DNA of 64,000 bases from a virus. The notes beneath the pieces are model-generated. The model did not search any database. It worked only from the letters and a program-made list of their open reading frames with translations, and was not told the origin of the DNA. The DNA lies in the IMG/VR virus record IMGVR_UViG_3300023084_000004. One strand, 5' to 3'. The position numbers were made by a program, and so were the translations under genes. How positions within the stretch are numbered: position 1 is the stretch's first letter; the number at the start of each line of letters is the position of its first letter. Shown piece after piece: positions 14,397 through 57,955 of this stretch.

Positions 14397-14418
14397 AAGG
14401 GACTCGAAAGGGTCCCTT
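14397..14418. terminator. terminator hairpin between convergent operons
   Basis: AAGGGAC-TC-GAAA-GG-GTCCCTT. Confidence 0.75.
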
Positions 14419-14968
14419 ATCTTTTATTACAATGTTTTTTTGCTTTTTCGAGTACTCTAAGATTACTGTGAACAACAACAGAAGTTAACATAAGTGTAGG
14501 CATCAAGATTTCATTTGTGATTGTTTGTCTTTTTTGAATCTCTGGTAATATAGATCCAAATATTGCTGTTTTAAGAAGTACCATTTCATGTATCTCTGGC
14601 ACTCTTGGTAATAAAGGATTCAATTCATATACACAATCGTAAGCGAGGGCTTTTTTGGTAGACCAGATATCTGCAGCTTGAACGAGAAAAAAGATCGTCC
14701 AGGTGGCTAAGCTGGCAGGTTCCTCCTCTGTTATTTTAAATTCAGGAAAAATTAATGTTGATTGAATGTGAGATGGATGTGGTAAATTAACAATTGAGCC
14801 ATTAGGCATTATTCTTGCTTGACCTATAATAACTCTTTGAACATATTCGTCATTGTATGGTGCAGTATAACCTGCTTCAAACATTACTCTTTGTATATCA
14901 GTGTACCCTGCATATACTGGAAAACTTAAAAAAAGTAATCCGATAAGTAATTTATTTAGTAGTCGCAA
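14417..14968 (-). CDS. exported/membrane hypothetical protein (DUF5658-like C-terminus)
   Basis: Signal peptide; AADIWST..A....YELNPLL. Confidence 0.5.
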   Translation of the reverse strand: MRLLNKLLIGLLFLSFPVYAGYTDIQRVMFEAGYTAPYNDEYVQRVIIGQARIMPNGSIVNLPHPSHIQSTLIFPEFKITEEEPASLATWTIFFLVQAADIWSTKKALAYDCVYELNPLLPRVPEIHEMVLLKTAIFGSILPEIQKRQTITNEILMPTLMLTSVVVHSNLRVLEKAKKHCNKR

Positions 14969-16991
14969 TGAAAATCCCGTCCCAATCTTTGGGTAGATCT
15001 TGCGTTTTCATATATTCACAACGCTCTATCCACATGGTATAATATCCAGCCATCTGACCTTCAAAACATTCCATTAAATCATTACATATTTTTATGGCTT
15101 TATCAAAGTTTTGTTTTCTATAATTCATATGCATAGCTTCATGCATCTCAGCCGGTTTAATATATTTATCCTTATTTAAATCTAAAACTGTGTATATCTC
15201 AATGCCTACTGATTTGCCCTTTACAGCAAGATCATCTACTTTCAAAAAGAAAAAGTCATTTCGACATCTTTCAACAGTTGCGCCACCTACTAAAAGCAAA
15301 CAACCATATTCTTTACATTTAGATTCTATTCGTGCTGCTGTTGATACTGCATCTCCAAGAACATCATAACTATGTCGCTCTGTAGAACCCATTTCACCAA
15401 GATATCCGAGACCAGTATTAATACCGGCACCCATACCAATTGGTGGTCTTCCTTCAGCAATAATCTTTTTATTAAATTCTTCTACAGATTTAAGCATGTT
15501 CAATCCAGTTTGAACAGCAGTTTTAGGGTGGTCAGGATCTTCTATAGGTGCGTTGTGGATGTGCATCGACGCATCGCCTATATATTTAATAATCATTCCA
15601 TCAGCGTTAAGGACAGGCTCAGTGATTGAATCCATATATCCATTCATTAATTTCGTTAATCCTTGTACGTCATCTCCAAAGCTTTCACCTAAAGGTGTAA
15701 ATCCTCTTAAATCAGAAAAACAAATACTAATTTCTTTTTTCATTCCCTCTTTAACGAGAGAAGGATTCTCTTGGAGTAAACGAACGACTGTAGGAGAAGC
15801 ATACCCAGCAAATTGTTTTGCTAGTTGACGTTTCTCTAAAAACGTGATAAAATACTTGTTAAAACTTGATTGAGCAAATACTACTAAGGAAGCAAATGAA
15901 CTCATTGTGGCGTCAACGAATAGCAGCGAATCAGTCCATAAATAATATGATATTAATGAAGAGGAAGCGAGCAGAAATAAACTCGTTGTCAATCCAAGAA
16001 TTGTGGGCAAAATATAGACCGCTCCAAGGATACCTAGACTCAGTAAGACCAGAAGAAGCAGCTCGACTATTGGCTGCCAGTCGGGAATCTGTATTTCAAC
16101 TCCTGAAAGGACGGTCTGAACCAGGTGTGCTTGAACTTCGTGAGGATACTTTGCACCCGTTGGGGTTGCGACTGGATTAGCATATCCTTCTGCTGTAATA
16201 CCAAATATTAATACCTTTCCATCTGGTAAAGGATCAAGTATACTTACTTGTTCAAATTCGTTCCAGAAAGCAATTGGTATTTCGGCAAAACTATTTGTTG
16301 TGATAGGATCTTGACGACCCATACGAATCCACTCAACTCCGAGTGGACCTACTTTCATTTGATAACTGGGTTCTCCTGTGAACACTCGTAATGTATCGAG
16401 TGCGAGAGATGGATAGGGATTCCCGGCTGCTCTGACCACGAGTGGTGCTCTACGCACAACTCCTGTTGGTTCATCAGGAACAGCAACGGTGGCACCAACA
16501 CCAAAAGCGTAATCAGCAAGAGGTTGAATAGGGTACAATAATCCTGGAAATTCATAAAGCCAATTTTCATTTTGTTCTCCAAAGGTAGCAACACCAACAA
16601 AGGTGCCAACTCCATCTGATGTTTGTTGAGTAGGAGCAGAAGATAATACAACAGCTTTTTGTGCCATTGCTTCTGCAAGTTGATTATCTCCTCCGAACCT
16701 ATCAGATTCGGAATAGATCATATTTAAGACATAAAGAGAATTAGGAGAATTGTTATTAAGGTACTTAGCAACAATATCCCGAGGCCACGGATATTGGCCT
16801 TCAGCTGCGATAGCTCTTTCGTCAATGTTGACGAGGACAATATCGGTTGATTGTATTTTTTCTTGTTCTGATTGAAGATAGTCATAATATGCATATTCTA
16901 TACTTTGAATAAAGTTTGGATTAGAAATTGATAAGGTTGCAAATCCAGCAATTGTTATTAATACTGTCCACCACTTTGTTAACCATTTCAT
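14952..16991 (-). CDS. CHASE2-domain class III adenylate/guanylate cyclase
   Basis: N-terminal TM, V.IDE..IA..GQYPWPR (CHASE2), 3 TMs, FSDLRGFT, IKYIGDA, GINTG...GEMGS, YDVLGDAVSTAARIE, L.VKGK. Confidence 0.93.
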   Translation of the reverse strand: MKWLTKWWTVLITIAGFATLSISNPNFIQSIEYAYYDYLQSEQEKIQSTDIVLVNIDERAIAAEGQYPWPRDIVAKYLNNNSPNSLYVLNMIYSESDRFGGDNQLAEAMAQKAVVLSSAPTQQTSDGVGTFVGVATFGEQNENWLYEFPGLLYPIQPLADYAFGVGATVAVPDEPTGVVRRAPLVVRAAGNPYPSLALDTLRVFTGEPSYQMKVGPLGVEWIRMGRQDPITTNSFAEIPIAFWNEFEQVSILDPLPDGKVLIFGITAEGYANPVATPTGAKYPHEVQAHLVQTVLSGVEIQIPDWQPIVELLLLVLLSLGILGAVYILPTILGLTTSLFLLASSSLISYYLWTDSLLFVDATMSSFASLVVFAQSSFNKYFITFLEKRQLAKQFAGYASPTVVRLLQENPSLVKEGMKKEISICFSDLRGFTPLGESFGDDVQGLTKLMNGYMDSITEPVLNADGMIIKYIGDASMHIHNAPIEDPDHPKTAVQTGLNMLKSVEEFNKKIIAEGRPPIGMGAGINTGLGYLGEMGSTERHSYDVLGDAVSTAARIESKCKEYGCLLLVGGATVERCRNDFFFLKVDDLAVKGKSVGIEIYTVLDLNKDKYIKPAEMHEAMHMNYRKQNFDKAIKICNDLMECFEGQMAGYYTMWIERCEYMKTQDLPKDWDGIFIATTK

Positions 16992-17731
16992 TATTGGCCC
17001 TGCGTTACTGATACACTACAACCACCTACAGTATAACAGGTTTGATTGAGTGAATATGATTTATTTAAAGTCGAATCTTGTAAAAGTGTTATATCAGTTC
17101 CGTATGTTCCGTCAAGTCTTATCCATGCATAATGACTTCCACTATTTTTTTGAACAACATCAACAATATTACCATCATTGTAAATATCTAAATCTAATGT
17201 ATGTCCACCACCTTCTCTTTGAATAGTAGATATATCATTATAATCTCCTTCAATATGTAAACCATACCAATGACCTGAAGAAGTACTGTTTGTTCGTTGA
17301 GTCATTTCTATATTGTTGTAATCACCAGTGACATTGATATGAGCAAAGGTATCACCATATTCATCATTGTCTATAGAAAAACTTCCGTCTCCATTAATGA
17401 TATATCCTTGAGCAAGTTTTAGATCGTTTCCTATTCCCCAAACTCTACGAATCTCTATGATGTTTTTATCAGTAGAACTACCATAGTTCTTATTTTGTGC
17501 AATAGAGATAGTATTGTCTGCACCATCTATTCCTTCTGTTGATGACCATTGTTTAATGATATTGCTATAACCTATTTGTGTTATATTTAGATCAAAATTG
17601 TCACCAGTCTGTTCTATTGTGATTTCATTATCTGCATAGGCTTTACCGGCTGCCAAAAGAAAATACATTCCTAATAGGCACCAACTAAATCCTAATAACC
17701 ATTTATCTAATTTTCTATCAAATTCGTCCAT
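16991..17731 (-). CDS. curlin-like repeat protein (CsgA/B-like)
   Basis: Signal peptide; repeated N.I.I.Q.G units (DNEITIEQTG, LNITQIG, YNNIEMTQ, YNDISTIQ). Confidence 0.65.
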   Translation of the reverse strand: MDEFDRKLDKWLLGFSWCLLGMYFLLAAGKAYADNEITIEQTGDNFDLNITQIGYSNIIKQWSSTEGIDGADNTISIAQNKNYGSSTDKNIIEIRRVWGIGNDLKLAQGYIINGDGSFSIDNDEYGDTFAHINVTGDYNNIEMTQRTNSTSSGHWYGLHIEGDYNDISTIQREGGGHTLDLDIYNDGNIVDVVQKNSGSHYAWIRLDGTYGTDITLLQDSTLNKSYSLNQTCYTVGGCSVSVTQGQ

Positions 17732-17739
17732 AAACTTAT

Positions 17740-18891
17740 TTATCCACCCTGTCTTATAATTACTGTTGAGTTATTACCGCCATTTAGATCAATGATCCCA
17801 CTATATCCTTCTACTTCTGTATTTACTTTTACTGAAGCATCTACGGCAAATGCTAATTGAATCTTTCCATTTGCCAAACGATAAAAAATTATTTTACCGT
17901 TATCTTCATAAATGTTATATTGAGAATCTGAATTTAAACCAAATCCTGCACCTTTTAATTCTGCGCCCATCGCATTATTTGATACTGCACTATCATCTAA
18001 TGAAGCTGTTGTTTTTACGAGATCATCAATTACATTTAATAAATCAACAAGAAAATCTACATCTAAAAAATCAATATCAAGTTCTGAAAATTCTAATTCG
18101 TCTTCCGCTAATGCATCATATTCTAATTCGTTAAATTCTAAAAAGTCAACATCAAGCAATCCTTGATCATCATTATTTTCATCGTTATATTCTTCTTCTA
18201 ATGCTCTTTTTACTTCAGGAGGTGGAGACACAATGAACATATTATCAATAACATTTGCTGTTATATTTGAAATATTAATCTGTCTTGTTGGCGGATCATC
18301 TAATGTAGAAACCATTGTTGCTGCGTAAGCTTCTTCTAAAGTAATCGTACCTCCTAAATTAGATACTTCAATTGTTCCTGATGGATTACCATATTGATCT
18401 GGTAAAAGTATGACCAGTGATCTTCCAAGCTCATCTATGGTGGTTGTGAAATCTGTTCCGCGTACCGCAATACTTGCAGTAGGTGTTTGTATGTCTATAT
18501 TACTTTTATTTACCATACCCAAACGACCTGATGCAAATCGTGCAGTGCCTAATGCCATACGCATTGCCATTTTGGATTTACTTGGATCAGGATCGTAGTA
18601 TACACTATCAATGTATACTTTGGTATTTTCGGTAAGACTGAGTTCTGCTTTATCTAAGAATTCGATAAGCATTCGGCCATTCTCAGTTTCGGCCGTATCA
18701 TTAATGACAATGTCAGGTACTTGTTGGTCTGACACCTCAAGAGTTGCACCTGCTTCTCTTGTAATAGAACCAGTTCCTGTGTGTTCAACAATATTGCCAA
18801 TTGGGTCTGCTGCAGACAAACCCAATGGCAACAAAGTGAAAACACTAAGTATCGTTAGACGAATCTTTTTGATTAATCTGGATAGTAGCAT
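17740..18891 (-). CDS. FecR-domain exported protein
   Basis: Signal peptide; T.NGR..I.F.D...L.L.ENT.V.ID, G..RF.SG, I.TPTA.I.VRGT.F; acidic D/E-L-F repeats in the C-terminal half; start could be 18903. Confidence 0.82.
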   Translation of the reverse strand: MLLSRLIKKIRLTILSVFTLLPLGLSAADPIGNIVEHTGTGSITREAGATLEVSDQQVPDIVINDTAETENGRMLIEFLDKAELSLTENTKVYIDSVYYDPDPSKSKMAMRMALGTARFASGRLGMVNKSNIDIQTPTASIAVRGTDFTTTIDELGRSLVILLPDQYGNPSGTIEVSNLGGTITLEEAYAATMVSTLDDPPTRQINISNITANVIDNMFIVSPPPEVKRALEEEYNDENNDDQGLLDVDFLEFNELEYDALAEDELEFSELDIDFLDVDFLVDLLNVIDDLVKTTASLDDSAVSNNAMGAELKGAGFGLNSDSQYNIYEDNGKIIFYRLANGKIQLAFAVDASVKVNTEVEGYSGIIDLNGGNNSTVIIRQGG

Positions 18892-19576
18892 TGTCAGAAT
18901 CAATGTCTAAAGTTATAATCCCATTACAGGTTGATACACCTGTAGGACATGTTCCACTTAATTGATTGATATCTATATCGGCACTATCTCCAACGTGAGT
19001 CATATTGATTTCGTGCTCAGCACCATCTTTTTGCATTGTGTTAATGTTATTTGAATCTCCAGTAATATCGAAGTTCCAAATCGCATCATCAACATCAATG
19101 TCAATATCAAATACGTTAGTTGAACCGAGAACAGATAAATCAAAATCCAATCTCTCGGCACTTGCGTTATAACCTAGATCGAAATCCATAGTGTTGCTAT
19201 CACCAGTTATATCAGACAAAATGTTTGCTGAATCTGATGAACCAACATAACCAATGTTCCAATCCCAACTATTACTATCTCCAGTCCAAGTAAGATCTAT
19301 TGTTGAACTGTCTAATGTAATAGGACCAAAAAGCAAATTGCTATTACCAATTTGATTAATGTCAATATTCAAAGTTGCACCAATAATAGACATTGCTGAA
19401 ACTGATCCTGAAGAAGCGTTATCTCCTCCAACTTTGTTTCCATATCCATATTGGTCAATATATAAAGTCAATGTATCACCTTGTTGGTCAATATTGATTT
19501 CGTTATCGTCCGTTGCTTGCGCAAATGCGAAAGTAGAAACAAAAACTAAACTTAGGCCTAATAGTTTTTTAATCAT
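18845..19576 (-). CDS. curlin-like repeat protein (CsgA/B-like)
   Basis: Signal peptide; DNEINIDQQG, LYIDQYG.GN, ININQIGNSN, repeated I.GDSN...D beta-solenoid units. Confidence 0.65.
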   Translation of the reverse strand: MIKKLLGLSLVFVSTFAFAQATDDNEINIDQQGDTLTLYIDQYGYGNKVGGDNASSGSVSAMSIIGATLNIDINQIGNSNLLFGPITLDSSTIDLTWTGDSNSWDWNIGYVGSSDSANILSDITGDSNTMDFDLGYNASAERLDFDLSVLGSTNVFDIDIDVDDAIWNFDITGDSNNINTMQKDGAEHEINMTHVGDSADIDINQLSGTCPTGVSTCNGIITLDIDSDNATIQINQKDSSNDT

Positions 19577-20487
19577 TCTTCTTCCCCGTTATTTTGTTTG
19601 TTTATTTTCCAGAAACCACGACGATCTCCTTGATAAACCATTTCCAATACGGCAGCTTCAATTGCTGTTCGTACTGCATACGTCACACTTTCATTATTTC
19701 CTACACCGTCTTCATATTCAATCAACTGCGTTCCCTGCTCGATGAATCTAAAAACATCGCCTCCGGCACCATAACTTAAAATTGTTTTTTTCGTTTGTAC
19801 ATTAAGTAATACTTCACCAGTTAAAACTGATACTGCTCTTAATGAAATAGTAACTTGATCTTGTCTATATTGACGAGTAATACCTAATCCTAGCGTCCTT
19901 GCTCCGATACCGCCCGTTCTTAAGTTACTATCATATCCAATAATACCGCCTTCAATTATCATTCCTGCGAATAAAAGTGGTCCAAGATTTGGAGCATCTT
20001 CTCCAGTTATCTTTGCGGCTTCTTCTCGACCACTACGAATAATTTGTCTTTCTCTAACAAGAGCATCAATCCCTTGTCTTTCAGCAACTCTAAACCATTT
20101 ACCATCTCCTGCAGTTTTGAGTGCATCAATTAATAATTCTGTTCCACCTTGTGTTACCGCAGTGGAGAAACTTTGTCCTGTGACTGAATCTTTACGTTGT
20201 CCTGTTTTATCTAAAAAGTTATATACAGCAACCACCGGCATTTGTTCGGCTGGCGGTAAATTTAATAATTCTATATAAGATGGTAATCTTACAACTTCAG
20301 GATTATCTGCGCATATTAATTGTTGTGCATAAAACTTTCTTACGCCTGTATAAACGTCTCTTCCAAATCCTTCTGAATATTTACCTTTACCATATTCACA
20401 TTGACCAGGATTTTCATTCCATTGCGGAATAGATGCACAACCTGTAATAAGAAGTAATAGACTAACCGCCGTCAGGATTCGAGTCAT
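19573..20487 (-). CDS. csgG: curli secretion channel lipoprotein CsgG
   Basis: Lipobox ITGC after ATG 20487; VAVY.F.DKTGQRK, FSTAVTQG, WF.V.ER, RERQIIR, GGIIGYD, LR.VSV.TGEVL. Confidence 0.92.
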   Translation of the reverse strand: MTRILTAVSLLLLITGCASIPQWNENPGQCEYGKGKYSEGFGRDVYTGVRKFYAQQLICADNPEVVRLPSYIELLNLPPAEQMPVVAVYNFLDKTGQRKDSVTGQSFSTAVTQGGTELLIDALKTAGDGKWFRVAERQGIDALVRERQIIRSGREEAAKITGEDAPNLGPLLFAGMIIEGGIIGYDSNLRTGGIGARTLGLGITRQYRQDQVTISLRAVSVLTGEVLLNVQTKKTILSYGAGGDVFRFIEQGTQLIEYEDGVGNNESVTYAVRTAIEAAVLEMVYQGDRRGFWKINKQNNGEEE

Positions 20488-20992
20488 CAGTTCCTCCGCC
20501 GAAGTTACCACTACCAATAGGTATTTCAATCACGGTCGTTGTCCCATCTTCCCCGACAATCGTCATCTTAATATATTCAGTACCATCTGTGTTTGTAATT
20601 ACTTCATATGTTACTGTTGATCCTTCCAATACAAAGGATCCATACCTTACAGGATTATCATTAGAGAACATATTGTCTACTAACTGTTTTGCTAATTGAG
20701 CATAAATCCTGCTTTCAAGATTTCTTATAAACTTTGCTAAAATTGTATTATCTGCTTCTCGTTCTGCTGCCTTTCTTGCAGCTTCCATTGCATCTTCGAT
20801 TTGTTTCTTTCTACTAAATTCTTGGTTCTCAATAGTTAAATAATGAGCACCAGTTCCAATTCCGCTGAATGATGGATTTTTAAATTTTTGTACTATAGGT
20901 TCACCATATACTTTTCCTGTTGCAAGTAAAAGATATGTAATAAGTATTACCCAACCAATAGCAAGTAAACCTCTATCATCAGTTTTTTTCAT
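20462..20992 (-). CDS. csgF: curli assembly protein CsgF-like
   Basis: Signal peptide then F.NPSF.G...G.H.L.IENQE, F..NLESRIY.QL..QL; directly upstream of csgG. Confidence 0.8.
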   Translation of the reverse strand: MKKTDDRGLLAIGWVILITYLLLATGKVYGEPIVQKFKNPSFSGIGTGAHYLTIENQEFSRKKQIEDAMEAARKAAEREADNTILAKFIRNLESRIYAQLAKQLVDNMFSNDNPVRYGSFVLEGSTVTYEVITNTDGTEYIKMTIVGEDGTTTVIEIPIGSGNFGGGTDDSNPDGG

Positions 20993-21254
20993 TATTTTTA
21001 GAATCCTCTTTTAATCTTTCAATTTCTCTATATTTTAATACGACATCTACTTTTTGTTGTAAACGAATGAGGTCTTGATCTAACATTCTCATGCGATCAA
21101 TTACTTTGATAAGTTGCATGTGCATTTTATCTATTGTAGGAATAATATTTTCGTTTATAAAATTCCACACAAAATACACAAAATATCCTAAACCAATTAC
21201 CATCACTGTAGGAAAGCCATATTCAGATACGGCAGTAACTATATCAAATTCCAT
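20979..21254 (-). CDS. small membrane protein, TM plus coiled coil (holin-like)
   Basis: V.EYGFP....GLGYFVYFVW, then heptad-like C-terminus. Confidence 0.55.
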   Translation of the reverse strand: MEFDIVTAVSEYGFPTVMVIGLGYFVYFVWNFINENIIPTIDKMHMQLIKVIDRMRMLDQDLIRLQQKVDVVLKYREIERLKEDSKNNEKN

Positions 21255-21456
21255 CGAACAAATCCAATTGTTTTGGATTATATGGTTTCCTATTAGTCCT
21301 TATCAAAGCGGCGGCACCGTTGTAATGTTCCATCGCAACAAATTTATCACCAGCTTTCCAATTCAATTTTTCTAGTGTTAATTCACCGTCAGATTCGTCA
21401 AATATTAGTAAATCTCCACCGGGTATTACCGTGAAATGATAACCACAATATAGCAT
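21244..21456 (-). CDS. hypothetical protein
   Basis: 70-aa ORF overlapping both neighbours. Confidence 0.55.
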   Translation of the reverse strand: MLYCGYHFTVIPGGDLLIFDESDGELTLEKLNWKAGDKFVAMEHYNGAAALIRTNRKPYNPKQLDLFDGI

Positions 21457-21752
21457 TAATCTCTCCTTACGTCGAGTTTTCCGTCTTCTATAAAATTTTC
21501 CGCTCGAGCAATTCGCTCAATATCAGGATTTAATCCAAGTGCGCTAGAAACGAGTAAATCTATTTTAACCATCTCATTTGACATAGTTCTCGCTCTGTTT
21601 TCTAGGCTTTCACAGAACATATTCAACGTATTAATGCTATCAACTATTCCTTCAAAAATTTGTTTAATAATAATAAAGAGGAATGCTCCCATTACTAATG
21701 CACCTGCTATAGGTAAGCCTAAATCAGCTATTAGCTGGAGTATAGATTCCAT
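21456..21752 (-). CDS. small membrane protein, TM plus coiled coil (resembles 20979-21254)
   Basis: I.DLGLPI..ALVMGAFLFIII, then coiled coil; AAGGA RBS. Confidence 0.55.
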   Translation of the reverse strand: MESILQLIADLGLPIAGALVMGAFLFIIIKQIFEGIVDSINTLNMFCESLENRARTMSNEMVKIDLLVSSALGLNPDIERIARAENFIEDGKLDVRRD

Positions 21753-21801
21753 ATTATCCTTTTATTTTTTTTATAATGATACAATAAAAACTGTATCGTA
21801 C

Positions 21802-21809
21802 TATTTATA
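21802..21809 (-). promoter_or_regulatory. T4-type late promoter heading the curli/cyclase operon
   Basis: TATAAATA on minus strand 50 nt upstream of ATG 21752. Confidence 0.75.
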
Positions 21810-21969: not shown

Positions 21970-22019
21970 GTTGACATTTGCTTTGAGATGATGTATAATG
22001 GTAACATAAATTAGGAAAA
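21970..22019 (+). repeat. 50-bp promoter cassette (identical to 22419-22468)
   Basis: TTGACA(21971)-N17-TATAAT; preceded by (GTGAAAAAAA)x3. Confidence 0.9.
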
Positions 22020-22030
22020 GGAGTTAAATT

Positions 22031-22384
22031 ATGGCTGATTATTCTTACTGGGGTGGAACAGGAAAGTTTCAAGACCTCGCCGATAAAATGCAAAACATGG
22101 TTCCAGTATCTGGTCCTTGTTACAACATACCTGATGATGATACTTCAGGAATCAATAAGCCTCTTGACACATTTCGTCAAGTTGTCAACGCATACTACGA
22201 CATCTTCAACAATGGTGGATGTAATAACGATACTCGTAAAGTTTCAAAATTCTTCCCAGGTGTAATGCAACATCTTCGTGGACGTAATTTCAATAATCCT
22301 GATTGGGATACTATCTCTTCTAAAGCTGATGCTCTTATGGATAAGCATGTCCAACGAGCTGCTAAGTCTATGGATTTACTTTAA
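22031..22384 (+). CDS. hypothetical early protein
   Basis: YW...GK.Q..., YYD.FNNGG.N; cassette RBS. Confidence 0.7.
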   Translation: MADYSYWGGTGKFQDLADKMQNMVPVSGPCYNIPDDDTSGINKPLDTFRQVVNAYYDIFNNGGCNNDTRKVSKFFPGVMQHLRGRNFNNPDWDTISSKADALMDKHVQRAAKSMDLL

Positions 22385-47588: not shown

Positions 47589-50500
47589 CTATTTGTCTCC
47601 TCGTAAAAATTTTACTTCTTCTCTCAATTCATCTAATTCTGATTTTAAGTCTTTAACTGCTTGTATTAAGAATGGTGTAATCTTGTCATAGTTAACTGTG
47701 AGGAAGTCTTTAAGCTCCTCACCATCAACCATAATTTTGTCTTTGCCGCCGTTACCAGCTTTATTTATAACTACAGAATTAGGTATTACATCTTGTGTTT
47801 CTTGAGCAATAACAGCGACTTCTTCCATTCCACCTTCAATAACACCAGCTGTTACTTGTTCGGCTTCTTTCTTCCAATTAAATCGACTTGGTTTCAGTTT
47901 CATGATCGTATCAAGACCTTCACCTCTTGGAAGTTCTTGAATATTTTCTTTCAATCTTCTATCTGACCAATAAGCAACAACGTTACCTGGTGTATATACT
48001 GAACCGTTTAGATATAATCTCCAACCAAACGATGTACTATAGAAACCATGCTCTGTATAGTTCATCATCAAGCAGATGTTGTTATCAAACTGCATACCAC
48101 CCCAACCGTTACGAGAACCTTGAACTCTCCAAGAACCGTAAGATGCGTTGTTAGGATAGAAGTGAGCGCCGTTAATACCAGAGTAAATACCGTGATAGCC
48201 AGTTAAGTTGTTCCAACGATACTGGTAAGAGTAGTTCGAACCACCGTTGAACTGCCATACCAAGCTTGCCATGTTATAATCAGTATAGAAACGCATACCT
48301 TCATATGATGGGTTAGCACCAAATTTCAAACCAGTATGGAATGCGATACGTAAGTCAGGATATGGATAGCTCCAACCACCGCCTTCACGATATACACGAT
48401 AAGCAGTTGATTGGTTGTTAGCGAACGCTACACCATATTCGTGGTTAGTTGAAACATCATAGTTATTACGTAGATAGAATGTTCCAAGACCCCAGAAACG
48501 AGACCAGGTATTCATATTAGCATAATAACTACTATCATGGTCATAGAATACAGAACCATAAACTCTATTATAGAAGTATGCGATAGCGTTTCCACCTTCA
48601 CGACCAATATATGCTACGTTCTGTGAATTACCAGAACCATTGTCGTGAATACGTACATAAGAGTTTCCGTTATTATTATTTGAGTCAAGTCTTAGGTTAA
48701 TGTCATTAAACGAGTTAAGTGACATTGAATCTGTAAACGAACCATTAATATCCGTCGAGGAAAGTCCATGATAGTAGTAATAATCATAGTTAGCATTCCA
48801 GTCGAATGATATGTAAGCCATCTTATGGAATTCAGATGACCATGTTCCATATCCTTGCAAGCGACCTTTATTAGTATCACTACCACCATAAGCCGTATTT
48901 GTTCTTGTTACATTAAATCTTGAATTACCATTTGGGTCAGCATAATATGCAGTGTTATTACGATCGTAGAAGATATATGCGCGAGCATCATTCATGTATG
49001 TAACACGGTATAGCTCCATGTGGCTATTTCCGTAGAATATACGAACCTGCCAGTTACCAGAACTATTAAGAAGACCGAAACCGTTTCCGTCCCAATATCC
49101 TGCATAACCTCTTAAATCTGATTCGTAGTTTCTATATGCTACTAGACCACCATAACTATAGCCTCCACCTGCATACTTGTAGTATCCATTATTGGAGTAG
49201 AAATGCATTCCGGTAGCTTGGTTATATAATCCATTACCAGAGTTTCTGTTGCGGAACCAACCATAAGTGTAATGTTCATTAGCATCAGTCGCATTTAATC
49301 TTGAGGTACCATTTGGATCGCAATAATAACCAGTATTATCAGAATCGTAGTAAATGGATGCGTAGAATGAACCAGAATATTCATTAACACCATGCATCGC
49401 GACTTTCTTCCAGCTACTAAAGCCGGACCAAGTATTACGGAACCACAATCCTGAGATAGGACCACCAGCCAGCTGCCAACCGTATCTTGCTGAACCATTA
49501 GTGTAGTGATAGGCTTGAACACCGACCCAGTGTGATGTACCTGAAGGCTGGTTAGGTGGATTACTCCATGAATCAAAGAAGCCTGAACCCCAGTCGGCAA
49601 CCGTGTTCATATTTACCCGGCTCCAACCGACTGAACCAGTCCAGTAGTTTGTATCTCCTGTTATACGAGGTCTAGCTGCATAGTATTCTTTACTTGATCT
49701 TGTTTGACCAGAAAGACCCATGAATGCCATTGTTAGGTTATTAACACCACGGAATCTTGTACTGTTATCTGAAGCACCATTGAAATAATAACCAGTGTCA
49801 TTGGTATCATAGAAGATAGGCGCTCTCATAGAACCTTGAGCTTGCAGATAACCATAATTATATTGGTGATAACTACCATTCCAATAATACATCCAAGTTC
49901 TAGAGTTATCATGAATACCGATATTATCTCCACCAGTACTCATTAATACCCAACGTGAACCTAATCCATAACCTCTCCAACCGTTTCTACCGCTACCGTA
50001 TGTAGCTACGTTACCGTATGAGTTTCCTTCAGATTCAGGAGCCCATAAACCATGTCCATAAGATTGGAAATAAAGACCGGTGTTACCTTGTGGTCTAAAC
50101 CAATCATTAGCATAAACTGTTCTTAATTGTGTAGAACCATTCGGGTCAACATAATAGCCAGTATTATTCCTATCATAGATAATCGGTGTATCAAGACGAC
50201 TAGCAATTAATACTTGACCGTTACCGCGAATAATTTGATTCCAAGAACCTCCGAATCCACCATCACGGAAGATGAAGTCCTCTCCACCTGATGTAGCAAA
50301 TTCAAAGTGAGAATCATTAGTTTCAGTTGCACGAATATATCCACGTAAGGAACCTGAACTTGTGTAGAAGTAAATAGGCGCGCCACCTTGCATTCTAAGA
50401 TCTGCATTTAGATACAATCTAGAGAATTGTGAATTGCCATTAGGATCTGCGTAATAGCCAGCATCGTTAGCATCATAGTAAATTGTTGCATACATTGCGC

Positions 50501-53500
50501 CGGAACCAATATTTTGGTTATACACGGCTGTGGTCTTCATAGTAATGCCTACGCCTTTACTATAACTTGGCAATGTTGAGTTTGAAATACTTGTAACTAA
50601 GTTTCTATCATCGCCATTTGCATTTCTTACGTGAACAGTGAAGGAGTTCCAATAAGATACTCTTGGCCACCAGAAACATAATACTCCACCATTTTCAAAT
50701 GCATATAGTGTTCCAAATCCTGCTTTACCAAAATGTTGACCAGAATAGTTGATAATAGTATTATTGTACAAATAACCTTGTGCAATAAAACTAAATGGTG
50801 GATCACCAGAATAAGATTTACCTGTTGCTTCAAGTACGAATGAAGCACCGTTAGTTGCTGTCGCAGGAATACTTGTTCTTACAATTGTACCATTTGCAAA
50901 ATCAGAACCTGAGTGTGCGAATGTTCTTGTGTACCAACCTCTTTGTCTTACATCATAGAGTTCTGATAGATTGCTTGGCTCAACATAGTATCCAGTAGAA
51001 TTTCTATCTCTAAATATGTCAGCTCTTACGTCGTTTTCAGCATATACGTGTCTATCATTTTGTAGCCACATAATAGCAACATTATCACCAGATGACCAAC
51101 CTCTACCAATACCGTAGTGTGGGTTATTTGATGGTGGATTTGCTCTATATCCAAAACTCAACATCGTTGCATTTGTACCAGGAATACCAATTACCCAATG
51201 TTTTAGGTTACCTGAAGATGCGTTAGCCGAATCATAGGCTGTAAATCTTAATGTAGGACCGTGATTACTGTTATTAATCTCAGATGACATAAGGTTCAAC
51301 TGAGGATATTGTCCTTTAATTGTTAAATCAGGTCTACGTGTTTCTTGAAGTACGCCATTATATAAATTAGACTCATCACCAATATGTAATCTGTATATAA
51401 GTCGTTGTTCATAGAATCTTGTTGTTCCAGCTGGATTAGCGTAGTAGTTTGTATCATTATAGTCGTAATAAATTGGTGAACGCATCTGATTAGGAGCATA
51501 ACCATAACCAGCACGAGTACCTAATTGCTCAACATTAGCAGCATAAAGTTGTACATAGTGATCGTTGGTGTTGCTACCTGAATTTGTAGAACGAATTAAG
51601 TTGTATGCACCATTAGAGCCACCGCGTATTTGAATACCACGATAAGTATTCCAAAGTATTCCATCAAATCCTGAGTTAGCTGCACCTCTAGCATTTGGTC
51701 CACCATAGTAGTCATTCCACAATACGTGGTTAGTATCAGTGCCGGCATTAAACCAAATACCATTGTGTGTATAATTACGCGCAAGTCTTAAACCGTAATT
51801 TCTTAATTCTAAATTATGTAGAATAGAATTTGAAGCCGGGTTTACATAATAGTTTGTATCATTTCTATCATAGAAAATAGATGCACGAACATCGTTTAAG
51901 ATTGAAATACCATTTGGATTTAAATAGTAATTAGCATCATTTAAATCATAATAAATTGGAGCACGCATATGTCTTGTTGCTCTGAATACTTCAGTTGCTA
52001 CTTCAGCATTATATTCTACTTGATCTCCCCAGAATACAAATGTTGCACCTGTACCATCTGGGTTAGCATCAGATACTCTAATTTCAGCATCAAAGCTTGA
52101 GTTAATAAAACCAATTCTATTACCAGCAAGAGTCAGTGTATTCATGTGTGACTGAGATGCTGGATTTACATAGTAATTAGTATCGTTACTATCGTAGAAG
52201 ATTGGAGCACGGAAACTTGTTGGTGAGTACACATAGTTAAAATATGTGATTAAGTTATCACGCGTGTCGTAAGCACCGTATGTTCTCTTGAATCTATGAC
52301 GAATAGATTCATTACCATCGTAATCGTCTTCAGATTGAAGGATGAGAGCGCCAGTGTTTGTTCCACTTGGTGATTCGCCGTAGATCTTCCAAGCATCGTC
52401 ATTACCCATTGTCTGACCAATATAATAGTCAGGTTGTGTTGCAACACTAGCGTATGCGGTACCGACTGGGTTTTGTGGTAATGTTAGTCTTGCAAAATTA
52501 GATGTTCCTGCAGGATCAGCATAAAAGTTCGTATCATCTGTATCTACAAATCTTCTTGCAAACATTTCGTCTGCAGTAATATCACCTGAGAATACTGTAT
52601 CACCATCTTCATCAACATAGAATCTATCGCCTTTACCATTAAAGTGAATAATAAATGCAGATTTACCATTGACATTATCGTGGACTAACCAAGGATAGTT
52701 AGCATCAGCACCACTGTTTCTGAAACCAATTAAGTATCTGTTATTATGATAGACTCCTAATGGATATGAAGTAGAACCTGTTAGAGCACCTTGGTTTCCT
52801 AATTCTAAAGTATTAAATCTTGAACGAGAAGCAAAGTCTCCAAAATATCCTGTATTATCTAAATCATAATAAATTGGTGAGCGTACATCTTGTCTCGAAT
52901 CAATTGAACCAAAGTGATGTCTTGTATTCGTAACAGTAGCACCAGTAACATTTCCAAGAGTTGCTCTTACTTGTTGACCAGTTAAGATTTCAATAGAGTT
53001 TGCTGGTGTTGTTAATTGTTTGCCTGAACCATCTTCTAATGTGATACCACTTACTGCAACCCAATGCCATCTTACATATGAATCCCAAGTGATGCTGTCC
53101 ATTTGCATCCAAATTCGGTTGTTATTATCAACACGAACTTTTGGTGTACCATTATTGAGTGGGCCAGTTGTATGATGGTCAATAGAAATTGAACTACTAT
53201 TCCATGAACTGATTACAATTCTACCAATAACATTACCACTATAGTTTACATCGTCTTTAGCGTAATATTCTAAGAAACCTTTTGCACCACCATTATTTGT
53301 AACACCAACTGGAATCCAGTAATATTGTGTATTAGGTGTTTGTGATGTGCTATAACTATATGTACTTTGTTGATACCAATAAGATTCAACTGGGTTATTT
53401 TGTAAATAACCACCTTGTTCGAACGTACCATTAACAATTAAGTTTTGAATATTTGAAGTATTGTTAGGATCTACATAGAATGCTGTATTATTTAAGTCAT

Positions 53501-56500
53501 AGAATATTGGAGTACGTAATTGGTTATTTGCTCTAAAGTATCCGTTGTCTGTTCTTGCTTGTTCACCACCATTATACATTAATCTCATGTATGAGTTGCG
53601 ATCTGCGTACCAGATCCATTCATTATCTACATCATTGTAAACACCTACACGATTTGCGCCATCATGCATGAATACAAAACGGTCATCAATACTGAATCCT
53701 GAGTATCCATTTCTTGCGCCACCGCTTACTGCAAATGAACCATAATCTCCTGTAGGCTCTCTTAATACAACAGCGTTACCATCAAGTTTGATAGTATCCA
53801 TTCTAGATTCTGAATTTGGATCTACAAAATAATTAGTATTATTTGAATCATAGAAAATTGGTGCGCGGAATGAGCCTGAAGCAACAACAAAGCTACCAGA
53901 CCTTGGACCTTTCATTGCCCATTGACCGGTTGCGCTACCATCATGGCCCCACATACCCCATTCGCCGTTATTGATTTGAGTTAAACCTGTCCAAGTATTA
54001 CCATCAGAACCAACAATACTTGTAGCACCACCACGATATCCAAGTGACATACCATAAGCAGACATTGAACCTGTTGAACTGTTATGTTCTGTGAAGAATA
54101 TTCTTGATGAACCTTCACCTGAAGTATCTGCATTACCTTCGATAGATAACCATCTACCTTTTTGAGCTTCTGCGTTTGATGCTGTTCCATTTCCAGGTAA
54201 ACCAAATGATAGATTTCCACCAAAGAAACCTGCATTACTTCCGGCATTACCTGTTGCGTTTGGATCTAAATAATATCTATTGTCGTCTTGATCATAGTAG
54301 ATAGAAGCATACATTCCACCGCCGCCACCAGTAATCTGAATTGGTCTGTTAAATTGGAATGTATTTGTTCCAGTTGATGTAGATAGAATCTCGAATCTTA
54401 AAGAATGATCTGTGGTATCAGTTTCGTCTTGCCAATATTGAATGTAACCTATACCATCTGTAATATACTGGCGAATACGTTCTGATGAGCTACGGCCAAC
54501 ATTTAATTCACCAGTGGTTGCACCACTGTAAACATTTAAGTATTTAAGTACAGAAGTTCCATCACCATCAATAAAGAAAGTATTATCATCAGAGTCATAA
54601 TAACGAGGTGCATAAACATTTCCTTGGAAATCAGCGGAATCATTGTCAATGTTTAATCTTTGAACTCCATTTGTCCAAACTCTGAATGTATCATTAGCTT
54701 CAAAACCAAAATAAGTGTTTGTATCTCCACGATGACGAATATAGTCATCAATGTCGATAGTATTCATTTGTGAATCACCAGCTGGGTCTACATAATAATT
54801 TGTATTATCAACGTCATAATAAGTTGAAGCGTAGAAATCGCCGTTAGATGAAAAATCTTTATTGTTTCGAATCTTAACTGTAGTGGTGTTGTCCATGTAG
54901 AAACCACCACCTGAACCAAATCCTAGTTCATCACCTTTTAAGAATGTAGCAGTTCCATTTCCAACAACAAAAGCATCGTCTAAACTAGCTAATTGAACAG
55001 ATCCACCAACATGTAATTTATTGTCTGTTGTTGCGCCTATAAGAGGTGTATTATCATTTGCTGTATATGTAGGACCAGTAGAGTTATTGACCATAACATT
55101 AGCGCTATCGTCAACAATTAATGCTTCAGTATAACCTGATGTCCAGAATCCCCAGTTAGTACTTGCTTTTAGAACTTGATAAAGATTACCAGAAGCATCA
55201 CCTCTAAATTGTCCGCCAGCAGTTCCGTCTGCATTAAACTGAAGATACACATTAGATGCATTTGTTGGATTATTTCCAATATCAATTCTATTTAAATTGA
55301 GTAATGCAGCTCCACCATTAGATCCACTAATTTGAATATTTGAATTTGTACCTGCAGCATTTGGCTGAATCGTGATACCACCATCACCTGTGTTATCATC
55401 TGTTCTATCTGCATCAGATACATTACCAATTAAAATTTTACCAGCAGCAGTTAATGATGTTGTCGTACTTGAACCATCAAAATAATAATCATTATTATCT
55501 GAATCATAATAGATTCCAGCATACATTGTAGGAGCTGTAATAGAAAGAGTACTTGTGATTGCAGAAGTATTAGCTGTAAATCTTATGGTTCCGCCGGTTG
55601 AAATTACAAATTCATCATTATTCGGAAATCCGATGTATGTATCAGTATCACCATTGTGAGCAATATAATCATCAAGACCAATATCATTCATTACCGAAGT
55701 GCCGGCAAAATTACCATAATAAGCTGTATTATTTGAATCGTAGAAAATAGGTGAACGCATCTGATCATTTGCTAATACATAAGTATTATTAACAAGTAAT
55801 CTTTGAGAACCACCAGTTACTACTCTAAAACTATCTGCTGCATTAAACTGTAAATAAGTATCTGCATCACCGTCGTGAATAATTTCACCAACTAATGAAA
55901 TATCATTTAATCTTGAGCTGCTAGCTGGATCGACATAATAAGTAGCATTACCACTGTCGTAATATCTACCTGCATATAAGTTCGGGAAGAAACCGTCGAC
56001 TGCACCAGTAATAAATGTTCCGTTAATTTCTAAACGCTGAGTACCATCAGTAAAGAATTGAATATTATCGTTTGCGTTAAATCCGAAATAAGTATTTGTA
56101 TCACCATTATGGAAGATGTAATCATCGATTCCTATGGTGTTCATTACTGAAGTACCAGCTGGATCTACTTCATATGTTGGGTCATCGGCATCTTGGAATT
56201 TTGAAACTTGTAATGTTCTATACGTTCTTAAAATTGTGTTATTAGCAAATAATGCTTCAGTACCACCAGTGTAGATAACAGCTTCATCGGCATTAGGGAA
56301 TCCGATATAGGTATTTAAATCTGAACGATGCCTAATAAAGTTATCAATATCAATACCAGACATCTGAGAAGTAGCATGGAAATCACCATAATAATCGCGA
56401 TTATTTCGATCATAATATCTCGGTGCTTCCATTTCACTAAGAGCAGTAACAGTATTTGCAGTAATATCAGTAGCAACTATATTACCAATATATACGCCAC

Positions 56501-57902: not shown

Positions 57903-57955
57903 TCGGTTCACTCTCCCCAGATAGGCGATTTAAATTGTAATTACTTTTCTATTTA

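Follow-up and report, generated by a model that had tools for sequence, protein, structure and literature searches.

The window analysed here is a stretch of 64,000 nucleotides (nt) from a 137-kb IMG/VR virus record (IMGVR_UViG_3300023084_000004), and our subject is a cassette of ten genes between positions 14397 and 21809 in which a curli-type (type VIII) secretion set, made up of csgF, csgG and two curlin-like genes, stands together with a gene for an exported FecR-domain protein and one for a transmembrane (TM) CHASE2 receptor fused to a nucleotide cyclase. The cassette forms one block of minus-strand genes in a T4-like myophage, and the identity of its parts is near certain. Judged by its sequences, it appears to join an alphaproteobacterial-style csgFG and curlin set, with no csgC, csgD or csgE, to a FecR plus CHASE2-cyclase pair, and these two were apart in every bacterial locus that we sampled. 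Its features, from the promoter downstream and with lengths in amino acids (aa), are as follows.

21802..21809, minus strand: T4-type late promoter motif TATAAATA, 49 nt ahead of the start codon (ATG) of g1
21456..21752, minus strand: g1, 98 aa, single-pass TM protein with a helical tail, in phrog_18771; the "histidine kinase" of the 2022 paper of Wittmers et al.
21244..21456, minus strand: g2, 70 aa, soluble product found in the closest relatives only and belonging to no family
20979..21254, minus strand: g3, 91 aa, a paralogue of g1 with one TM segment and a helical tail, in phrog_18771
20462..20992, minus strand: csgF, 176 aa, with signal peptide and N-terminal NPxFxG motif (Pfam CsgF, E 6e-13)
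19573..20487, minus strand: csgG, a 304-aa lipoprotein (Pfam CsgG, E 1e-53) with lipobox ITG/C
18845..19576, minus strand: g6, 243 aa, conserved acidic curlin-like beta-solenoid with signal peptide
17740..18891, minus strand: g7, 383 aa, exported FecR-domain protein (Pfam FecR, E 2e-10)
16991..17731, minus strand: g8, 246 aa, divergent second curlin-like protein with signal peptide
14952..16991, minus strand: g9, 679 aa, with a TM segment, periplasmic CHASE2 domain, three TM segments, class III nucleotide cyclase domain and C-terminal helical tail
14417..14968, minus strand: g10, 183 aa, exported or membrane protein whose C-terminal Cys-pair domain is conserved, with a weak match to DUF5658
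14397..14418, no strand assigned: GC-rich hairpin overlapping the g10 stop codon between convergent units, likely a bidirectional terminator

An earlier note on this DNA, made from the letters alone, had described ten overlapping or abutting genes behind one promoter, and its account of gene content and layout holds. The ten open reading frames (ORFs) run on the minus strand from 21752 to 14417, downstream of the TATAAATA motif, in the order g1 (TM), g2, g3 (TM), csgF, csgG, g6 (curlin-like), g7 (FecR), g8 (curlin-like), g9 (CHASE2 cyclase) and g10 (exported), with Pfam matches for CsgF, CsgG, FecR and the CHASE2 cyclase. By their coordinates, neighbouring genes overlap by 1-59 nt at each junction, the sole exception being an 8-nt gap between g7 and g8, and six of the translations (CsgF, the lipoprotein CsgG, g6, g7, g8 and g10) begin with Sec-type signal peptides. 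Within the cassette, sites resembling sigma-70 promoters (43 vs. 36 expected) and terminators (6 vs. 3.6 expected) occur at chance level, and the hairpin at 14397-14418 closes the unit, facing convergent plus-strand genes. Neither Pfam nor NCBIfam gives a match to CsgC, CsgD or CsgE, which the note had not recognised, in any of the ten products. To the left of the cassette lie genes for a dNMP kinase, exonucleases, PhoH and glycosyltransferases, and to its right those for the major head protein, scaffold, portal, sheath and large terminase; since T4-like phage genes thus stand on both flanks and the parent record is a viral one of 137 kb, the stretch is phage DNA, as the note had taken it to be, and not a host chimera.

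In this AT-rich window TATAAATA occurs 8 times where 10 copies are expected, an absence of enrichment that makes the count alone uninformative, so that it is position that matters. Seven of the eight copies lie 29-61 nt upstream of a same-strand ORF start; five of these seven are in the minus-strand structural-gene region, one of them directly upstream of the tail sheath gene. The placement is non-random. Of 50 distinct related loci, 41 also have the motif ahead of the g1 homologue and 5 more have NATAAATA there, and the T4-type late-promoter position first proposed for the copy before g1 is accordingly upheld. Because of this motif, the cassette would be expected to be transcribed late. In more than 20 relatives (in our numbering L006, L007, L011, L015, L019, L020, L033 and some 15 more) the distance from the end of TATAAATA to the ATG of the leading gene is exactly 5 nt, too short to fit a ribosome-binding site; should the motif be a -10 element, the late mRNAs of these relatives would lack a leader. 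In the window and its nearest relatives there is instead a leader of 36-49 nt with a Shine-Dalgarno sequence. A perfect sigma-70 consensus (TTGACA, 17 nt, TATAAT) at 21971-21999 on the plus strand is directed away from the cassette, toward the plus-strand genes that begin at 22031, so that the 280-nt intergenic region holds divergent early-type and late-type promoters.

Six salt-marsh metatranscriptome runs contain 38-65 % of the sequence words of the stretch. Contigs from four of the six cover 26-29 of 30 bins, and one contig of 2.5 kb spans g7, g6 and part of csgG; in such RNA-library contigs depth can neither rank genes nor show ends, uncovered bins are not evidence, and a single transcript is not demonstrable. 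They agree with transcription of the cassette. Within the cassette, three of these four runs had their deepest contigs at 18739-19839, across g6 and the 3' portion of csgG; since depth of this sort does not rank genes, it is no more than a hint that g6, the conserved curlin gene, gives the most abundant message.

Both components of the putative pore are readily recognised. CsgF (49.5 bits in Pfam, cut-off 25.8) carries the residues N39-P40-x-F42-x-G44, which are invariant, also in a bacterial CsgF. CsgG (182 bits, cut-off 20.8) matches the E. coli CsgG structures at E 6e-50; its reading frame is open back to TTG 20529, and the start is most likely not that codon but ATG 20487, which gives the MTRILTAVSLLLLITG/C lipobox (LLLITG/C). 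At its N-terminus the phage protein carries about 35 additional aa, a Cys among them, and its constriction is altered. In its CsgG-family lipoprotein and its CsgF with the pore-binding motif the cassette agrees with a type VIII (curli) secretion system; it is not one of E. coli type, in which CsgE, CsgC and CsgD would all be present.

The homology of g6 and g8 to curlins appears well supported. Their families are homologous to each other (hhalign 99.3 %, E 8e-21), and Curlin_rpt is matched at E<=0.01 by 26 of 27 members of the g6 family and by 14 of 25 in that of g8. Both proteins match multi-repeat curlins encoded beside bacterial csgE-csgF-csgG (tblastn 2e-6 and 7e-5; operon confirmed by Pfam), and g6 aligns with the true curlin of a bacterial csgEFG operon (hhalign 74 %, E 2.8e-5). 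The AlphaFold2 (AF2) model of g6, with a mean predicted local distance difference test score (pLDDT) of 82, is an all-beta solenoid, comparable to beta-helix proteins with VIA Z scores of up to 15.8. The two differ in conservation: mean column identity is 69 % for g6 vs. 41 % for g8, which shows indels of whole repeats and has a median identity to its relatives of 38 %. Both are highly acidic (isoelectric point about 4.1-4.3), and each has a conserved C-terminal Cys pair. Formation of amyloid fibres by g6 and g8 is hypothetical; what bears on it is a beta-solenoid prediction.

The FecR-domain protein g7 (41 bits in Pfam, cut-off 24) most likely starts at ATG 18891. Its N-terminus is a signal-peptide-like helix with a beta domain directly after it; in the AF2 model a FecR-type beta domain (32-205) is joined by an acidic, disordered linker to a small beta domain at the C-terminus. 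The FecR-type domain matches the periplasmic cell-surface-signalling domain of PupR (VIA Z 15.9, root-mean-square deviation 2.4 A over 134 aa; Foldseek E 1.5e-4). Neither the sequence nor the model of g7 contains a cytoplasmic anti-sigma domain or a TM anchor, and no FecI-type sigma factor or FecA-type/TonB transducer was seen among the ten cassette products; without the anti-sigma and membrane parts, g7 is not a FecR-type regulator. For its C-terminal domain (304-380) no confident structural match was obtained, and a reading of that domain as a "pore plug", by way of 5ix9 (an adhesin retention domain), was dropped, as VIA places the match on residues 28-125 with Z 6.8. The C-termini of g7 homologues (17740-17800 in the window) share a conserved N-G-G-x3-I-x-I-x-Q, like the last strand of the curlin-like proteins, of which g6 ends in ...ATIQINQ... 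and g8 in ...SVSVTQGQ; the motif may be a common signal for export or docking.

The cyclase g9 matches CHASE2 over residues 19-319 (E 2e-30; 106 bits, cut-off 26.3) and Guanylate_cyc at E 3e-16. Hydrophobic segments lie at about 5-25, 304-344 and 355-374, giving a three-TM block (304-374) and a cytoplasmic catalytic domain. In alignment with the CyaB and bacteriophytochrome-adenylate cyclase structures, the metal-binding Asp residues are D427 (FSDLRGFT) and D473 (IGDASM). The Lys/Asp couple K469 and D543, which on established knowledge of class III cyclases we take to be the adenine-specifying pair, is present, as is the transition-state Arg, R554. By these motifs g9 joins a CHASE2 receptor to a class III cyclase whose specificity residues are of the ATP type, and its predicted product is likely cyclic AMP (cAMP). 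A module signalling from periplasm to cytoplasm had been suspected from the outset, and the TM-CHASE2-3TM-cyclase layout of g9 and the signal peptide of g7 speak for it. The 48 phage homologues of the cyclase fall into two subtypes about 40 % identical to each other: 15 are like that of the window, with the K/D pair and Ser (FSDLRGFT and YD.LGDAVSTAARIES, Ser replacing the transition-state Asn), vs. 33 with K/Ser (FMDI.GFT and YSVIGDAVNL.ARLE, Asn kept and Ser replacing the specificity Asp).

Of particular relevance is the comparison with bacterial neighbourhoods. The FecR family alone comprises more than 5800 clusters at 90 % identity, and CHASE2 is found in 246 of 401 sampled Pseudomonadota genomes. 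We compared 20 bacterial loci centred on CHASE2, each from a different genome. Seventeen encode CHASE2-cyclase fusions, and a FecR-domain ORF lies within 7 kb in 10, directly adjacent in 9; the corresponding figure for 20 bacterial csgG loci is none (10/20 vs. 0/20, Fisher p 4e-4). No CsgG, CsgF, curlins, g1/g3 or g10 were found in the 20 CHASE2 loci, and no FecR, CHASE2 or cyclase within about 9 kb in the 20 csgG loci. As the two modules are found apart in the bacterial loci sampled, the phage cassette can be regarded as a fusion of two bacterial modules. Similar pairings are seen in a Bryobacterales operon (CHASE2 histidine kinase, sigma54 regulator, FecR protein) and are on record elsewhere: Campylobacterota clusters combine a CHASE2 adenylate cyclase with a FecR-domain protein, a tetratricopeptide repeat (TPR) protein and a phosphodiesterase (PMC9239204); Sinorhizobium meliloti has clr, cyaD1 and smc02177 together, CyaD1 being a CHASE2 adenylate cyclase and SMc02177 a FecR-domain protein (PMC5498481); and the Burkholderia BiofilmReg operon pairs LysM-FecR with a CHASE2 histidine kinase (PMC5192318). 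Since FecR plus CHASE2-cyclase is thus a recurrent bacterial sensor pair, the two phage proteins are better read as a presumed periplasmic sensor than as an iron regulator. A complex prediction for the CHASE2 periplasmic domain (24-305) with the g7 FecR domain (28-215) scored 0.00, which gives no verdict either way.

CsgG relatives occur on 314 IMG/VR contigs, the nearest with 87 % CsgG identity. Across 59 distinct viral loci, each gene being counted where the contig reaches far enough, the cassette is accompanied by g1, g3 and csgF in 55 of 55 cases each, g6 in 54 of 54, g7 in 48 of 48, g8 in 43 of 45, the cyclase g9 in 29 of 29 and g10 in 21 of 28; gene order is constant across the viral loci compared. 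The cyclase half is separable in space and always retained. Inserts separating it from g8 lie, for example, at L003:13495-14430, L012:13847-14788, L017:13910-16284 and L067:13619-14597; judged by sequence motif rather than Pfam, their products resemble uroporphyrinogen decarboxylase (hemE-like, about 311-315 aa), a glycosyltransferase, a metallophosphoesterase and IscU, and there are small ORFs of 85-103 aa. Thirteen salt-marsh DNA runs contain 80-95 % of the sequence words of the stretch.

PHROGs holds CsgF, CsgG, FecR and the cyclase in phage families and places g1 and g3 together in phrog_18771, of unknown function. No Pfam or NCBIfam family and no kinase domain was found for either; the ESM Atlas has g3 in viral-only clusters with no Pfam family. 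g1 contains no His at all, and a single Gly alone is invariant across the g1 and g3 families. For proteins of 91-98 aa with no kinase domain and no conserved His, the published label "histidine kinase" is not supported. Homologues of g2 are present in 4 of the 59 loci. In the structural region of the window lies an ORF of 3440 aa (47589-57911, minus strand), after which come two of 900 and at least 1090 aa; the 3440-aa ORF contains one copy of TATAAATA.

The system is one already described. A distant DNA search matched only Methylophilales phage Melnitz and Pelagibacter phage HTVC008M, and the GenBank order of genes in these two is small hypotheticals, CsgF, CsgG, curlin-associated, FecR-domain/hypothetical, curlin-repeat/hypothetical and adenylate/guanylate cyclase. 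Zaragoza-Solas et al. (2020) described the "curli operon" and proposed "sibling capture" (PMC7029224). Wittmers et al. (2022) described in podo- and myo-pelagiphages a cluster of 1-2 "histidine kinases", CsgF, CsgG, CsgA/B, FecR, CsgA/B and adenylate cyclase; it lacks CsgC/D/E, which are also missing from operons of the alphaproteobacterial style, while FecR, histidine kinase and adenylate cyclase lie outside bacterial type VIII secretion system operons, and an alphaproteobacterial origin was inferred (PMC9599517). They found its genes at all 65 GOV2 stations and its transcripts in Pacific metatranscriptomes (PMC9599517). The earlier note had presented the candidate amyloid substrates and the signalling chain as additions made by this locus; that claim is not supported, both being in PMC9599517 and annotated in HTVC008M and Melnitz. 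The locus is a further copy of the pelagiphage type VIII secretion module with its FecR and adenylate-cyclase genes, and its novelty is therefore low.

How might the cassette work? Late in infection, a phage CsgG-CsgF channel would be placed in the host outer membrane, and the phage curlin-like subunits would be exported through it, assembling on the cell surface; the conserved g6 may serve as nucleator or anchor and the variable g8 as bulk or exposed subunit. In parallel, g7 and the CHASE2 cyclase would together make up a two-protein periplasmic sensor, responding perhaps to curlin load, envelope state or an outside cue and setting the cAMP level in the cytoplasm. We infer the fibre and cAMP functions from the nature of the parts, and we give this mechanism as a whole, a late channel exporting curlin-like subunits together with a FecR/CHASE2 cAMP sensor, a probability of about 0.55. 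It overlaps the published ideas of "sibling capture" and protection against superinfection. A narrower proposal, that g7 and the cyclase form a feedback sensor of the phage's own secretion, with curlin load or pore/fibre assembly converted into cAMP, seems unlikely. If it were true, late envelope remodelling would be tied to the physiology of the host or to release timing, and a link between type VIII secretion and a second messenger has no precedent in the bacterial loci sampled.

A number of observations weigh against the mechanism as a whole. On the export side, only the Phe of the E. coli Tyr-Asn-Phe triad is kept in the CsgG constriction, and CsgE is absent by Pfam from the ten products. 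The curlin-repeat match of g6 falls just below its cut-off (E 1e-3; 19.5 bits vs. 20.7), and g8 itself has no Pfam Curlin_rpt match. Searched with the g6 profile, PDB sequences yielded no CsgA or CsgB and nothing at E<=1; the fold match of g6 is to generic beta-helices and not to CsgA, with no Foldseek hit of the model in the PDB at E<=1e-3 and CsgA outside the VIA top 50, a result that does not exclude a CsgA-like fold. Cultures infected with Melnitz showed no clumping by flow cytometry or transmission electron microscopy (PMC9004378). On the signalling side, S550 of g9 occupies the position of the transition-state Asn (AVSTAARIES). In a mammalian cyclase, Ser for this Asn lowers activity, and the replacement leaves the activity of g9 unproven. 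The 137-kb record, 64 % complete, yielded neither a cyclic nucleotide-binding domain nor a cAMP-binding protein. The interval from g8 to the cyclase is a hot spot for insertions and holds unrelated auxiliary genes in many relatives, so the two halves do not always form one tight unit. Finally, the RNA-library contigs may be DNA carry-over.

It is unlikely, in our view, that g6 and g8 are exported but remain monomeric beta-helices or form a coat (for receptor masking, superinfection exclusion or adhesion) with no curli-type fibres. The strong acidity and the Cys pair of the two proteins, atypical for CsgA, would suit such a role, as would the top fold matches, which are to beta-helix proteins of globular shape, to adhesins and to an antifreeze protein. 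The divergence of g8 is rapid, like that of proteins exposed at a surface and under selection, and Melnitz, again, showed no clumping (PMC9004378). Set against this are the Curlin_rpt matches throughout both families, the resemblance of g6 and g8 to true curlins from a canonical operon, and the strict linkage of both to csgF and csgG.

Buchholz et al. (2022) proposed a lysis-timing pore (PMC9004378), in which CsgG-CsgF would be a gated secretin- or pinholin-like channel that times lysis, the other genes being accessory or regulatory. The late promoter position suits a late envelope function of this kind, and the missing CsgE, a periplasmic gate, the extra N-terminal segment of about 35 aa with its Cys, the altered constriction and the holin-like layout of the small TM proteins g1 and g3 can all be accommodated, along with the unclumped Melnitz cultures of that study (PMC9004378). 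However, CsgG sits in the outer membrane and would be unable to depolarise the inner membrane as a pinholin does. A lysis pore also leaves unexplained both the exported curlin-repeat proteins that co-occur with csgG in 54 of 54 and 43 of 45 loci and the conservation in CsgF of the motif used in fibre nucleation and pore capping; we consider it quite unlikely.

An option raised by Wittmers et al. (2022), that an ungated CsgG admits cofactors or siderophores while FecR acts as an iron-dependent regulator, is very unlikely. It draws on the lack of CsgE and on the origin of the FecR name in ferric-citrate signalling, and is discussed in PMC9599517; yet g7 has a cleavable-looking signal peptide and neither a cytoplasmic anti-sigma domain nor a membrane anchor, the ten products include no FecI-type sigma factor or FecA-type receptor, bacterial FecR-domain genes like g7 adjoin CHASE2 sensors, which points to a sensor partner, and an import pore has no need of curlin subunits. 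The weakest alternative, that a bacterial cassette was mis-assembled onto phage sequence, is suggested by relatives on contigs binned into bacterial metagenome-assembled genomes (MAGs) and is already refuted by the phage genes on both sides of the cassette in the window, its presence in two cultured phage genomes and 314 IMG/VR contigs, the T4-type major capsid gene in two of five MAGs checked (in one of them on the contig of the cassette itself), and the 13 DNA runs with 80-95 % of the sequence words.

The full-cassette contigs in question (L084-L094) are filed in MAGs of Sphingobacteriales, Planctomycetaceae, Saprospirales, Pelagibacter, Nisaea, Flavobacteriaceae and Luteolibacter. Five MAGs were checked, and a T4-type capsid gene was found in two, in one case on the cassette's own contig; these contigs, which look like phage binned with bacteria, therefore offer no evidence of a bacterial origin.

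SAR11 and OM43 are among the most abundant cells of the sea, and their phages equip them with a secretion system, and perhaps with surface fibres, which these hosts do not have themselves. Were the system functional, aggregation, superinfection and carbon export could change, a case already in print. What is added here is the FecR plus CHASE2-cyclase sensor pair, the non-kinase nature of g1 and g3, the conserved late promoter, two catalytic subtypes of the cyclase, and full co-occurrence across 59 loci.

Four known systems invite comparison with the cassette that we favour as a late curlin exporter with a cAMP sensor. The FecR/PupR anti-sigma regulators share the fold of their periplasmic domain with g7 (Z 15.9 to the PupR C-terminal domain), but g7 departs from them in its signal peptide, its disordered acidic linker and a further, separate beta domain at the C-terminus. 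With bacterial curli the cassette has in common the CsgG lipoprotein channel, the N-terminal pore-binding motif of CsgF and, putatively, Sec-exported curlin-repeat subunits; it differs from E. coli csgBAC/csgDEFG in lacking CsgE, CsgC and CsgD, in the high acidity and Cys pair of its subunits, and in two changed constriction residues. In bacterial FecR plus CHASE2 modules an exported FecR-domain protein likewise adjoins a TM-CHASE2-TM sensor whose cytoplasmic output is often a class III cyclase, but there the pair is unlinked to csgG (0/20 CHASE2 loci), and in the phage cassette neither a Crp-like receptor nor a phosphodiesterase nor a separate TPR partner was recognised. By far the closest is the pelagiphage type VIII secretion module, which has the same genes in the same order, without csgC/D/E and in T4-like phage. 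The window proteins are 24-50 % identical to those of the cultured phages, and their cassette lies divergent beside an early-type promoter region, whereas those of the cultured phages are downstream of gp32/thyX; the window further adds the 70-aa g2 and the Ser-variant cyclase subtype, and near-identical DNA is present in salt-marsh samples.

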